Of a stretch of 64,000 nt of DNA, positions 2,058-62,274 are shown one piece after another. The DNA comes from Escherichia phage JY01. The notes below the pieces were generated by a model. That model saw only the letters and a program-made list of their open reading frames with translations, did no database searches and was not told the origin of the DNA. Position 1 is the stretch's first letter; every line of letters starts with the position of its first letter. The stretch lies in the sequence record OR995200.1. One strand, 5' to 3'. A program made the position numbers and the translations under genes.

Positions 2058-2390
2058 TTATTTTACTACTTTCCAATGCTGCATGTCAAGTTTACCAACT
2101 TTTTTCATCTTCTCAATCAAACGTTCGGCACGTTGGCGAGCTGTAACATAATACCATTCACCTAATTCATTTTGTTCAATTTTTCCAACGATTACTGTAT
2201 TCAATTCATAAATCCAACCAGTAAAGAAATTATGAACTTGAATTGTAAAGGTGAAATCTGTTCCCATACCTTCTGTTGTTTCTACTTCAATAATATCACC
2301 TTCAACTGCCATTAAGAACCACATAGTTTCATCATATTTACCATTGAAGCATTTAGTTTTAACTGCAGCGTTCAGATTAATCGTTTTCAT
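2058..2390 (-). CDS. hypothetical protein (T4 30.8 position)
   Basis: 110-aa ORF downstream of an early promoter module at 2417-2447. Confidence 0.5.
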   Translation of the reverse strand: MKTINLNAAVKTKCFNGKYDETMWFLMAVEGDIIEVETTEGMGTDFTFTIQVHNFFTGWIYELNTVIVGKIEQNELGEWYYVTARQRAERLIEKMKKVGKLDMQHWKVVK

Positions 2391-2416
2391 TTTATTCTCC
2401 TTTGTTTGTGTAAGAT

Positions 2417-2447
2417 AATACTATCACAAAGGAACCATACTGTAAAC
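2417..2447 (-). promoter_or_regulatory. T4-type early promoter module
   Basis: GTTTAC at 2442-2447 on the minus strand with a -10 near 2417-2425. Confidence 0.5.
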
Positions 2448-2470
2448 AACTTTATGCAATCTTTGGAAAA

Positions 2471-2495
2471 TAAAAAAGGACTCCCGAAGGAGTCC
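2471..2495 (-). terminator. intrinsic terminator (hairpin plus U-tract)
   Basis: GGACUCC-UUCG-GGAGUCC hairpin followed by UUUUUU on the minus-strand transcript. Confidence 0.6.
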
Positions 2496-2500
2496 TCAAC

Positions 2501-2677
2501 TTATGCTTTCTGCTTACCAAAACGAGAAGCATCATCTCGAAGAACCGCACGTGCTCGGCGCATGATCTTCTCAACAGTTTGATTGATACGAGAGTTCGAC
2601 CCACGCTTGTAGCCAGCGCGTTTAGAATCACCAACTTTCTTTTCAACTGCTTTCTTTGCTTTAGCTTGTTTTGCCAT
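2501..2677 (-). CDS. small basic protein (T4 30.9 position)
   Basis: Lys/Arg-rich ORF; likely start MAKQAKAKK at 2677 (track ORF extends to 2719); hairpin plus U-tract terminator immediately downstream. Confidence 0.45.
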   Translation of the reverse strand: MAKQAKAKKAVEKKVGDSKRAGYKRGSNSRINQTVEKIMRRARAVLRDDASRFGKQKA

Positions 2678-2921
2678 TATAAATTCTCTTTTAAATGAAA
2701 ATGCAGGACTTATTGGCATTGCCTGCGCAAGCCCTCAAGGGGAACGTAGGTTTTTGGATATTTAACGACCAGGATAACCATAAACCCGTCATCATTCACA
2801 TTCAAGAGGTACACCGTAAAACTGCCGGGGTCTTAAAACTATAATGATTCGCAAATCATTAATCAGACAGTTCGACGGCTCCTCGATTTAGCTCACACTA
2901 AGGCAGTGAATCTCCAATAAA

Positions 2922-3170
2922 TTACTTCAATGTTACCACAAAGTGACGAACTGCTTTTCGCGCAGCAGAAGCCAAAGGCTTAGCATATTTAAGTTCATCT
3001 TTTTCCTGAAGCTCAGCAGCTAATGCAGTTTGAGTAGGATTCAGATGTTTGAAATAACGCAGGATTTCAAGAGCTTCGGCTTCAACATCAATAGATGCGC
3101 CATAGTTTTCGTGACCATTATTCCATGCGTTTCGTTGCAGTTCAAGAGCGTGTTGTAATTGTTTAATCAT
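2922..3170 (-). CDS. rIII: rIII lysis-inhibition accessory protein
   Basis: 82 aa, same size as T4 RIII, located immediately downstream of gene 31 as in T4. Confidence 0.75.
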   Translation of the reverse strand: MIKQLQHALELQRNAWNNGHENYGASIDVEAEALEILRYFKHLNPTQTALAAELQEKDELKYAKPLASAARKAVRHFVVTLK

Positions 3171-3317
3171 TTAAAAATTCTCGTTAGAGATTAAAACTCG
3201 GTAGTCACGTTCTTCTGAATTTCATCTTCTTTCGACAGATCTCTCAGTTGTAGACTACCACATAGAATTGTTCGGTTAACTTATTATTCCGACACCCAAT
3301 TCATATTATTATTTATA

Positions 3318-3653
3318 TCACTTATAAAGACACGGAATAGCTTTATAGTGACAAGTAACGAATTTTTGTTTAATTTCTTTTGGCTGCTTAAGACCCAGAG
3401 CTACAAAAGGATGCGGAACATTTCGAATTTGACCAACTGGAAGAGAAGTCAAATCACCAACTTCGCAGAAACCTTCAGGAACATCAGGACCGACAGAGTG
3501 AACTACACACAGTTCAGGAACTTCACCTTGAACACGTTTACCGATAATAAGTCCTGATTCTGTAACTTCTTCATCACCGGCTTGTGCAGGTTCAGAAACT
3601 AAAATAACATATTCACCGACAGCACGAATTGGTAGCTGTTGTACTTCAGACAT
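3318..3653 (-). CDS. 31: gp31 co-chaperonin (GroES analogue for capsid protein folding)
   Basis: 111 aa; sequence and size as recalled for T4 gp31; synteny rIII-31-cd. Confidence 0.9.
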
Positions 3654-35152: not shown

Positions 35153-35191
35153 TTTCTAATCTCCGTAATTCTGTATCAGTAGTTGATAGTT

Positions 35192-35223
35192 GTATAGTAC
35201 CACAGTATGCTTTGGTTGTAAAC
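35192..35223 (-). promoter_or_regulatory. early promoter upstream of motA
   Basis: GTTTAC at 35218-35223, -10 TATAGTACC, conserved leader. Confidence 0.55.
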
Positions 35224-35249
35224 CGTTTTGTGAAAAAAATTTTTGAAAT

Positions 35250-35276
35250 AAAAAAAGGGAGAGCCGAGGCTCTCCC
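35250..35276 (-). terminator. intrinsic terminator after gene 52 / motA.1
   Basis: Hairpin GGGAGAGCC-UCG-GCUCUCCC followed by UUUUUUU. Confidence 0.65.
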
Positions 35277-35282
35277 TAAAAA

Positions 35283-35432
35283 TTACTGCATGACTGTGAT
35301 AACTGTCATGATAACACGTTGAATGCCGAACGCAAGAAGACCTCCTGCTACGGCTGGAACAACACCTAAACCCGCCAGTAAAATGCTACCGGATACTAAT
35401 GCAGCGCTTGTAATACCTATGAATGGACTCAT
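35283..35432 (-). CDS. small hydrophobic membrane peptide
   Basis: 49-codon ORF (MSPFIGITSAALVSGSILLAGLG...); ATGA overlap with gene 52 stop; below track cutoff. Confidence 0.4.
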   Translation of the reverse strand: MSPFIGITSAALVSGSILLAGLGVVPAVAGGLLAFGIQRVIMTVITVMQ

Positions 35433-36757: not shown

Positions 36758-36761
36758 AAAT

Positions 36762-36902
36762 TTACCATACTAGTGAATGTAGTGCCATAATAACATCAGA
36801 AATGAAAAGCACGACTTGAATTAATCCGAACATTACTCCATAATATAGTGCTACTAATAAAGTAGCAAGGGCTAATGAATAGCCCAAGATTTTCTTAATC
36901 AT
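36762..36902 (-). CDS. small membrane peptide (52.1 position)
   Basis: 46-codon hydrophobic ORF; overlaps the next ORF by ATGATTAA. Confidence 0.35.
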   Translation of the reverse strand: MIKKILGYSLALATLLVALYYGVMFGLIQVVLFISDVIMALHSLVW

Positions 36903-37047
36903 TTTCATTTAATAGCCAAAACAATGATAAAATTGCTAATACGCCTTGAGCTGTTGCTTGTAAAAATACTGAAGTTTCTCCAGTTATTACTGTTCCGGCG
37001 AATAAAAAGGACCAGCAGAAAAAGGCTATACCATAAACAAATTTCAT
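36895..37047 (-). CDS. ac: Ac-like small membrane protein (acriflavine sensitivity)
   Basis: 50-codon hydrophobic ORF at the T4 ac position; assignment by position and size only. Confidence 0.45.
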   Translation of the reverse strand: MKFVYGIAFFCWSFLFAGTVITGETSVFLQATAQGVLAILSLFWLLNEND

Positions 37048-37054
37048 ATTTTCC

Positions 37055-37135
37055 TCACTGGCGTCCGAAGACGCCTTTAGTTTTAAAATTATTACGATAG
37101 AACTGCATCACATGTTCGTTATGGAAATTACTCAT
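37055..37135 (-). CDS. stp: Stp peptide (suppressor of three-prime phosphatase; modulates the host EcoprrI-PrrC system)
   Basis: 26-codon [29 protein letters not shown], as recalled for T4 Stp; start overlaps the ndd stop. Confidence 0.7.
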
Positions 37136-61929: not shown

Positions 61930-62274
61930 TTAAAAGAATTTAAATTTTTTCTTTGACCTTTTATTAAATGCATCTTGTAGTTGCATTGTAATACATTTTT
62001 CTACATGAGGAGCTAACTCAGCTTTTCTTTCTTGGTCAAGAACAGCAAAGTCCATTACGACTTTTCCATCAACCCAATCTAATTTTGTCACATACACAAT
62101 GTGTGTAGAACCATCTTCTAGTTTAATGACAATCTCCTGGATAACATTTTCCATGGCAGATTTAATTATCTTAAGAGATTCATTAAAAAGACGTTCTTTT
62201 CTTTCTTCTTCCCCCTCCGAAGAGGGGGATTCATCGATAATTTCTAGATCTAAGTCTAAATCATCTTTATTCAT
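61930..62274 (-). CDS. 40: gp40 head-vertex assembly chaperone
   Basis: 114 aa from MNKDDLDL (track ORF is 120 aa); position between 41 and uvsX. Confidence 0.55.
   Translation of the reverse strand: MNKDDLDLDLEIIDESPSSEGEEERKERLFNESLKIIKSAMENVIQEIVIKLEDGSTHIVYVTKLDWVDGKVVMDFAVLDQERKAELAPHVEKCITMQLQDAFNKRSKKKFKFF

Follow-up and report, generated by a model that had tools for sequence, protein, structure and literature searches.

In the 64,000-nucleotide (64-kb) stretch of Escherichia phage JY01 analysed here (sequence record OR995200.1; hereafter the window, whose positions serve as coordinates), genes rIII and 30.9 are separated by a non-coding spacer of 244 nucleotides (nt), which runs on the minus strand from the rIII stop to the 30.9 start (2678–2921) and is considered throughout as minus-strand RNA. 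The interpretation favoured here, tentatively and with slightly less than even confidence, is that the spacer is an untranslated array, within the gene 31–rIII–30.9 transcription unit, of independently folding and horizontally portable non-coding RNA cassettes, in which modules A0 and A may function in free or excised form, as stable, decoy or protein-binding RNAs, and module D may act on 30.9 translation. The blocks follow one another in the window in the order A0-A-C-D. Compensatory mutations maintain the folds of A0, A and C; T4-like phages gain, lose and reorder the modules as whole units; the modules are far more conserved than the neighbouring neutral sites, the four-fold sites of rIII; and module A also occurs in three unrelated phage groups.

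Module A is a structured RNA of 91 nt (2799–2889, minus strand) defined by RNAalifold, covariation and a covariance model. RNAalifold on 11 T4-like copies yields 25 pairs. Three stacked lower helices of 4, 5 and 8 base pairs (bp; GAGG/CCUC, GCCGU/ACGGU and GAACUGUC/GGCAGUUU), with single-base or 3-nt bulges between them, support an 8-bp hairpin at the apex; the stretch UAUAGUUUUAAGACCCC is unpaired and conserved. A preliminary description of the window had singled out an 8-bp hairpin, TAATGATT-CGCA-AATCATTA on the plus strand (2842–2849/2854–2861) and UAAUGAUU-UGCG-AAUCAUUA in minus-strand RNA; it is present as described and corresponds to the apical stem, helix 3, of module A (2842–2861, minus strand). 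Perfect 8-bp hairpins arise in 1.8% of spacer shuffles, and the whole window holds 28 of them. The hairpin alone is thus only mildly unusual and owes its credibility to covariation: in the comparison across relatives that had been proposed, it is 100% paired in 20 distinct sequences, with four of its eight pairs changed on both sides. Its Kuravirus counterpart is UAACAAUC-UAAG-GGUUGUUA. The further GC-rich inverted repeats in the same description are the lower stems of module A together with the D hairpins (CCC/GGG and GCAGG/CCUGC). What it missed was the 91-nt element around the hairpin, the portability of that element, the ToxI-related unit in the first 35–40 nt after rIII and the cassette mosaic.

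Counted over 20 distinct sequences from four phage lineages, 98.2% of the cells of module A are paired and 12 of the 25 pairs are compensatory, values that none of 500 shuffles equalled; slid controls gave 29–63% pairing. The third helix is longer by 2 bp, on both strands, in W70 and Kuravirus. Three invariant G-U pairs and one U-G/U-A pair make the fold specific to rIII-sense (minus-strand) RNA. The unpaired CUGAUUA and UAUAGUUUUA and the GUA bulge keep their sequence across all four lineages, and module A as a whole is identical in T4-type genomes and RB69. Within module A, a single base, at position 2826, separates the window from T4 itself (locus L001), reading GGCAG in the former and GACAG in the latter; it exchanges a U-G for a U-A pair and is structure-neutral. 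In the window, the covariance model recovers a single copy (115.7 bits, E = 2e-27), and a second candidate at 62168–62251 (E = 0.02) was dismissed as a chance hit inside an open reading frame (ORF) of 120 amino acids (aa). A reading of UGAUGA/CUGA as a K-turn or C/D box was likewise set aside, its geometry being unsuitable.

A distant search recovered the same ~95-nt sequence, with ~80% identity, outside the T4-like phages, namely in the Vequintavirinae W70 and A73, the Kuravirus phages 172-1 and XT32, and phi92; three metagenome or metagenome-assembled-genome contigs carry a Kuravirus-type module A. In W70, a consensus-like sigma-70 promoter precedes module A, which is followed after a 5-nt gap by two tRNA genes and then by a T4 rnaD-like sequence. 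In Kuravirus, the module stands a few bases after a stop codon, ahead of an apparent intrinsic terminator and a terminase gene, and in XT32 it and a ToxI-like unit occupy adjacent intergenic gaps. In phi92, the whole T4-type spacer and the last 87 nt of rIII lie within a tRNA cluster between 13-bp direct repeats; this copy is a recent transfer and a clear product of illegitimate recombination. The phi92 segment (L067, 1463–1813) reads as spacer, an ATG fused to the last 28 rIII codons, and the first 13 spacer nt again (repeat TTTATTGGAGATT); its small coding sequence (CDS) is annotated as ‘putative rIII’, and the IMG/VR loci L036 and L037 resemble this segment.

A riboswitch or gene-specific leader would be expected to precede a constant class of gene. 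Module A is followed by a 30.9-type gene, by tRNAs, or by a terminator and terminase, and so is not the leader of one gene. The spacer had been proposed to be a small RNA, a processing site or a regulatory leader; a functional structured minus-strand RNA is supported, and a gene-specific leader is the least likely of these roles for module A. The copies in W70 and phi92 lie in a tRNA gene cluster, as do the T4 RNAs rnaC (species 1) and rnaD (species 2), whose function is unknown, and like these RNAs module A has neither an Rfam family nor a known function. Sharing an operon with the rnaD-like sequence in W70, it may be released there by tRNA processing as a small stable RNA. Unlike rnaC and rnaD, however, module A of the window is situated between protein genes, 60 kb from the mapped T4 tRNA cluster. 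Homology between module A and rnaC or rnaD was rejected, only chance words of 7–8 nt being common to them. T4 rnaD-like sequences (AAGTCGTCGGACTGATG...CACAGCAGAAACGGCGCACC) are found beside tRNA genes in the Vequintavirinae W70 (L064, ~900–975) and phiTE (L073, ~575–690).

Between rIII and module A lies module A0 (UUUAUUGGAGAUUCACUGCCUUAGUGUGAGCUAAAUCG; 2882–2922, minus strand), identified by positional orthology and hairpin covariation as a putative single, diverged unit of the ToxI type. The rIII stop of Gaprivervirus-type relatives is followed by 40 nt that read AGGUGAUUCGCUACCUUAAGUGCGGCUAGAAAAUC, and as a query these matched 75 plasmid records, with several matches per record. The three records inspected, among them pECA1039, the plasmid on which ToxIN was first described (AGGTGATTTGCTACCTTTAAGTGCAGCTAGAAATTC x5.6), have 36-nt repeats in tandem immediately upstream of a ToxN/AbiQ toxin gene. 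A covariance model built from bacterial ToxI units only gives the Gaprivervirus-type units 48–61 bits (best 60.9; E 5e-8 to 9e-11), recovers the units of phiTE and XT32 in the same range of E, and reaches L028-type units at E ~1e-3 and Klebsiella-type units at E 5e-3. Judged by sequence, the relatives' unit adjoining rIII is of ToxI lineage.

The A0 unit of the window is identical to the Gaprivervirus unit at the orthologous position in 26 of 33 nt and contains the core hairpin UCAC-U-GC-CUUA-GU-GUGA at ~2893–2909. Across 15 distinct units, four T4-type variants among them, the 5-bp bulged hairpin (3 bp, a bulged U, 2 bp and a loop of 4–6 nt) is 100% paired with compensatory changes at three of five pairs, a value equalled by none of 500 shuffles. 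T4-type A0 is also identical at 30 of 30 positions where rIII four-fold sites differ at 14 of 26 (54%), and therefore is not simply decaying. In place of the GGUG of ToxI it reads GGAG, with one nucleotide inserted and another deleted in the 3′ half. It keeps the tetranucleotide GCUA (ToxI positions 26–29); the ToxI mutations C27G or U28A abolish activity against Pectobacterium ToxN (Blower et al., 2012; PMC3475682). The complete ToxI fold is an H-type pseudoknot with base triples (PMC5086642). ToxN processes at the motif AA^AU, GAAAU for E. coli ToxN, and A0 is edged by AAAU on its 3′ side (GCUAAAUCG) and AAU on its 5′ side (GUAAUUUAUU, overlapping the rIII stop); these edges would give a 35-nt unit, and neither is GAAAU. 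The bases after A0 (AAAUCGAGGAGCC) loosely resemble the start of a second repeat but belong to module A. A likeness of A0 to the type I-F CRISPR repeat (UUCACUGCC...CUAA) was dropped, as A0 does not form the stem of that repeat and the sequence in relatives departs from it.

Pseudo-ToxI has been known in a single phage, phiTE, which picks up ToxI by recombination and whose 1.5 pseudo-ToxI repeats, compared with 5.5 repeats in toxI, do not protect in the wild type but defeat ToxIN upon expansion (PMC3475682). Like that pseudo-ToxI, A0 is short and ToxI-related, lies between phage genes near other small RNA genes and has no adjacent toxN. It differs in being a single unit rather than 1.5 repeats and in having diverged too far for a significant ToxI-model score. 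The A0 of T4 types is probably an antitoxin mimic, weak or retargeted, from which expansion could start. A ToxI query of two repeats matched 200 phage records, 163 of them from Klebsiella phages; those listed have genomes of ~165–175 kb, with the match near the position expected for the rIII locus. The others include Pectobacterium rV5-like phages (phiTE among them), Kuravirus, Salmonella 7-11 and Kenya-K36, Vibrio JSF10/12 and Yersinia TG1, and only the phiTE unit is annotated among the 200 records. ToxI-like units lie at 2620–2658 in XT32 (L074), 1826–1869 in L028 and 698–758 in phiTE (L073). The phiTE unit has the exact sequence of the toxI repeat carried by a Lelliottia plasmid and differs from that of pECA1039, and a sequence resembling the 3′ half of a tRNA (GGTTCGAACCC...CCACCA) is directly 3′ of it.

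Module C (2746–2798, minus strand) contains a hairpin at ~2767–2790 with a conserved loop, GGUUAUC, and conserved flanks, UGAUG and CGUUAAAUAUCCAAAA. It is 88% paired, and its covariation score of 0.447, against 0.154 in shuffles, was reached by none of 500; the stem alternates between GAC/GUC, GUG/CAC and GUC/GAC with the loop and flanks fixed. Module D (2678–2745, minus strand), delimited by the minimum-free-energy fold and the alignment, is the 30.9 leader proper. The same fold predicts three hairpins on the minus strand: D1, CCC(CUUGA)GGG, at 2732–2742; D2, GCAGG...CCUGC, at 2703–2726; and a weak one, UUUUC...GAGAA, at 2684–2701, which could pair with the presumed ribosome-binding site (GAGA) of 30.9. 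As read by eye from the alignment, relatives replace GCAGG/CCUGC with ACUGG/CCAGU and GGGAGC/GCUCCC, and UUUUC...GAGAA with UUCC...GGAA. Module D stands next to 30.9 in most relatives and is strongly diverged in sequence in the distant ones. A long-range helix across the whole spacer (UUUAUUGG/CCAAUAAG), seen in the minimum-free-energy fold, was rejected because relatives devoid of A0 keep D and because it competes with the covarying A0 hairpin. Modules A, C and D were also considered as copies of CptI, TenpI or Sok arrays, a proposal abandoned as no plasmid or E. coli genome matched; matches were confined to the ToxI-like portion of relatives.

The portability of the modules is evident from their distribution. 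Of 34 IMG/VR loci fetched for their rIII homologue, 32 have a full-length rIII (67–99% aa identity) and a 30.9 homologue in the order rIII, gap, 30.9, with a gap of 120–416 nt; the other two, L036 and L037, hold only a 3′ rIII fragment of the phi92 type. The alignment of 33 spacers is a mosaic in which each of blocks A0, A, B, C and D may be there or missing, and their order varies. RB69-type phages have no A0, module A is truncated in L060, L031 and L063, and in the L028 type C comes ahead of the ToxI-like unit and B. The A/C junction of the window (2797–2798) is an empty site at which relatives carry either the 137-nt module B or an insert of ~45–50 nt, and close T4 relatives with 99% identical flanks have an insertion of ~154 nt there. 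The shorter insert, UAUUUUGUACUAUCACGCGUCAGAAAAAGGUUAUCUGUCUAAGUCGUGGUUGG, takes the place of module B in many relatives, among them RB69 (L091, 8450–8513), L004, L006, L009, L010 and L015.

Module B is a GC-rich block of ~137 nt that many T4-like relatives have between A and C, each genome with a single copy, at the rIII-30.9 locus (L028, ~1870–2010; L014 and L024, within 1749–2145). Its fold has 42 pairs, 98.8% paired and 18 compensatory, and includes a covarying 6-bp loop-loop (kissing) helix, CGAUGG/CCAUCG, and a GNRA-type hairpin. It matches no Rfam family and looks like a genuine new structured RNA; an apparent module B in L047 was rejected as a chance hit. In pairs of phages whose rIII four-fold sites differ at 42–55%, module A is identical at 85–88 of 89 positions (96–99%), C at 44–47 of 50 (~92%) and D at 59–66 of 68 (89–97%), which points to purifying selection, recent exchange or both.

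Under the cassette interpretation, the spacer RNA would be made within the rIII-30.9 message, and the modules would fold as the RNA is made. A0 and A would then act as RNAs in their own right, whether stable, protein-binding or decoy, and not as switches for any particular neighbouring gene; a model for RNAs of this type would be pseudo-ToxI, soaking up the ToxN RNase of an abortive-infection system. Only module D would serve 30.9 directly, by folding around its presumed ribosome-binding site. A related phenomenon may be the PeSL (early promoter plus stem-loop) cassettes, mobile regulatory elements of T4-type phages said to have been described by Arbiol et al. in 2010. Like these, the spacer modules are short non-coding pieces shuffled between intergenic sites of T4-type genomes. 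In contrast to PeSL, they have no predicted sigma-70 or early promoter, are longer, show covarying folds and include one that crosses phage family boundaries.

Several results weigh against this interpretation. Scored directly, the A0 of the window is not significant against a model from eight bacterial units (9.3 bits, E = 4, rank 8 in the 64-kb window) or one from 17 units (11.6 bits, E = 1.6, rank 4 of 23 in the same window). The ToxI claim for this unit therefore stands not on the score but on its position between rIII and module A, the 26/33 identity and the compensatory retention of the hairpin; a weak match to the ToxI model does fall at exactly the A0 position in other T4-type loci too. 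Nor is there a second ToxI-model match beside A0 in the window, which leaves a single unit where ToxI is tandemly repeated. Plasmid-borne toxIN strongly restricts T2, T4 and T6 and restricts RB69 less, and the identified T4 counter-defence is a protein, TifA (PMC9391042). As T4 has A0 and the less restricted RB69 does not, A0 gives no protection from this ToxIN. Loss of module A does occur, as in L060 and L009, and the high conservation of the modules could be due in part to recent inter-phage exchange rather than selection. Searches of 72,556 plasmids and 5,426 complete E. coli genomes found nothing resembling the window spacer, so module A is not an obvious mimic of a known host RNA, and a literature search returned no usable map of T4 transcript ends and no report on the rIII-30.9 spacer.

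The alternative that survives best, possible though on balance doubtful, holds that the modules are cis-acting elements of the 31-rIII-30.9 message, that is, determinants of processing or stability (RNase III-type, RNase E/RegB, or rIII 3′ stabilisers), with D setting the translation of 30.9. The spacer does separate two cistrons, no promoter or terminator is predicted within it, and module D is beside the 30.9 start in most relatives, where it could pair with the presumed ribosome-binding site. Early mRNA of phage T7 has intercistronic hairpins for RNase III processing. By analogy, the lower stem of module A, an irregular duplex of ~17–19 bp, would be in the size class of phage RNase III sites, and a portable processing site would suit any gene context. 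The T7 hairpins share with module A an irregular helix of about two turns, internal bulges, an intercistronic location and independence of gene context; in module A, however, the apex is branched or extended and the unpaired segments are strongly conserved in sequence. The likeness is one of shape. A generic double-strand RNase site would have no need of CUGAUUA, UAUAGUUUUA and the GUA bulge, which four lineages conserve. Moreover, W70 has its module A in an operon of tRNAs and small RNAs, with no protein gene to regulate. Two GGAG motifs stand at the starts of A0 and A. RegB is known from T4-like phages, yet W70 and Kuravirus, which are not T4-like, keep the same GGAGC. GGAG is the core motif of RegB, but both contexts misfit its extended consensus, GGAGRAYARAA (PMC3014915).

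A more specific proposal, which we consider unlikely, makes the spacer an RNA anti-defence island of swappable decoys, in which the ToxI-derived unit would act against ToxN-family RNases, module A against an RNA-binding defence protein, and module B, which many Klebsiella and Escherichia T4-like phages have at this site, as a third member. Module A would in that case be a new class of decoy or antitoxin mimic, spread to Vequintavirinae, Kuravirus and phi92-type phages for its usefulness.

Also unlikely is the possibility that the modules are selfish or neutral debris, left by illegitimate recombination with toxIN plasmids and with other phages at an insertion-tolerant site, devoid of any present function. 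The modules are indeed present or absent among near-identical phages, the phi92 copy with its 3′ piece of rIII is flanked by the 13-bp direct repeat, ToxI is acquired by recombination in phiTE (PMC3475682), and the A0 of T4 types looks degenerate in a phage that is sensitive to ToxIN (PMC9391042). Debris would nevertheless be expected to decay, and here the folds are kept by compensatory changes, the modules are more conserved than synonymous sites, and module A is the same in T4-type and RB69 genomes.

A role at the level of DNA, as a hot spot of recombination, a signal for replication or packaging or a site of protein binding, where the inverted repeats would form cruciforms, is very unlikely. 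The inverted repeats are found on both strands, and the site is a hot spot of insertion and deletion; against this, the G-U and U-G/U-A pairs of module A become C-A mismatches on the other strand or in DNA, and the plus strand folds no better than its shuffles (z −1.2, compared with −2.0 for the minus strand). No T4 origin is known to map at the spacer.

The spacer does not code for protein. The interval of 2720–2921 (202 nt) had been described as ORF-free and relatively GC-rich, and both points hold: it is the third-longest in the 64 kb without an ORF of at least 50 aa, the longest touching the window edge, and its GC content is 0.436 against a window mean of 0.354 (standard deviation 0.042), with 3% of 202-nt windows equally GC-rich. 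Three small ORFs of 34–49 aa overlap it, at 2710–2814 (minus), 2691–2795 (minus) and 2695–2844 (plus), and some GenBank records annotate 2710–2814 and a 72-aa extended form of 30.9 (ending at 2719) as CDS. The proposal that one or more of these, the 34-aa minus-strand ORFs, the 49-aa plus-strand ORF or the 72-aa 30.9 form, encodes a small protein is barely credible, for although the PHROG profile of 30.9 reaches into part of the upstream extension, the small frames are broken, truncated or start-less and the extension closed or frame-shifted in close relatives where the nucleotide sequence is conserved, and the small-ORF translations match no PHROG and only one Pfam entry, BA14K, below threshold (E 0.028; 14.8 bits, cut-off 26).

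The region is 99.8% identical to many Tequatrovirus (T4-type) genomes with rIII annotated, and on the minus strand gene 31 (3318–3653) is followed by rIII (2922–3170), the gap, 30.9 (2501–2677), a strong intrinsic terminator (2476–2497) and 30.8. The rIII CDS (82 aa), assigned from the ORF list, T4-type identity and T4 annotation, ends in a UAA at 2922–2924 that abuts A0. Gene 30.9 starts with the ATG at 2677, in line with T4 annotation, and encodes a very basic protein of 58 aa (phrog_1427, unknown function) that is the 3′ neighbour in all relatives. Several phage records (H5, H10, H11, H14 and H18) label it ‘1,4-alpha-glucan (glycogen) branching enzyme, GH-13-type’, which is evidently a propagating annotation error. 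The intrinsic terminator GAGGACUCCUUCGGGAGUCCUU with its U-run (2476–2497, minus strand), found by a terminator scan and annotated as such in MK327936, probably ends the transcription unit that includes the spacer. That scan returned sites at 2476–2497 and 2523–2539 only, hence no intrinsic terminator or attenuator within the spacer; a promoter scan predicted none there, sigma-70/early promoters included, and inspection by eye saw no T4 late-promoter TATAAATA box and no good MotA box. Directly after the 30.9 terminator and ahead of 30.8 lies a promoter-like site, TTTACA-17-TAGTAT (2446–2418, minus strand), and the arrangement matches the terminator/early-promoter region described for the T4 genes upstream of gene 30. 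Other long ORF-poor stretches of the window (no ORF of 50–60 aa or more) are 35153–35428 (276 nt) and 36758–37134 (377 nt), neither with a tRNA or an Rfam match; a tRNA scan of the entire 64 kb found zero tRNA genes.

An Rfam scan, one of the checks proposed at the outset, returned nothing for the spacer. With Rfam release 15, no match was found in 2678–2921 even at E up to 10 (2300–3400 scanned by E-value) or in the whole window at gathering level, and the homologous modules of nine relatives and W70 went unmatched; hits to Atu_C8 and Phe_leader are merely the 30.9 terminator. Module A, and module B in relatives, are thus candidate new RNA families.

T4 is a reference phage, yet the counterpart of the spacer, a gap of 244 bp at 130541–130784, has nothing annotated in either T4 record. 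Most other GenBank records show no RNA or regulatory annotation there, and in some automatic annotation adds spurious small CDSs; gene callers thus place false proteins in the spacer, next to a 30.9 that is mislabelled in many records. The literature searched makes no mention of a wide presence of ToxI-like units in T4-like or other phages, or of a T4-type derivative. Were the modules functional RNAs, mimicry of type III antitoxin RNA, so far experimentally demonstrated for one Pectobacterium phage, would be widespread, modules A and B would be new RNA families well supported by covariation, and the rIII-30.9 spacer would constitute, besides the tRNA cluster, a third small non-coding RNA locus in T4-type phages.

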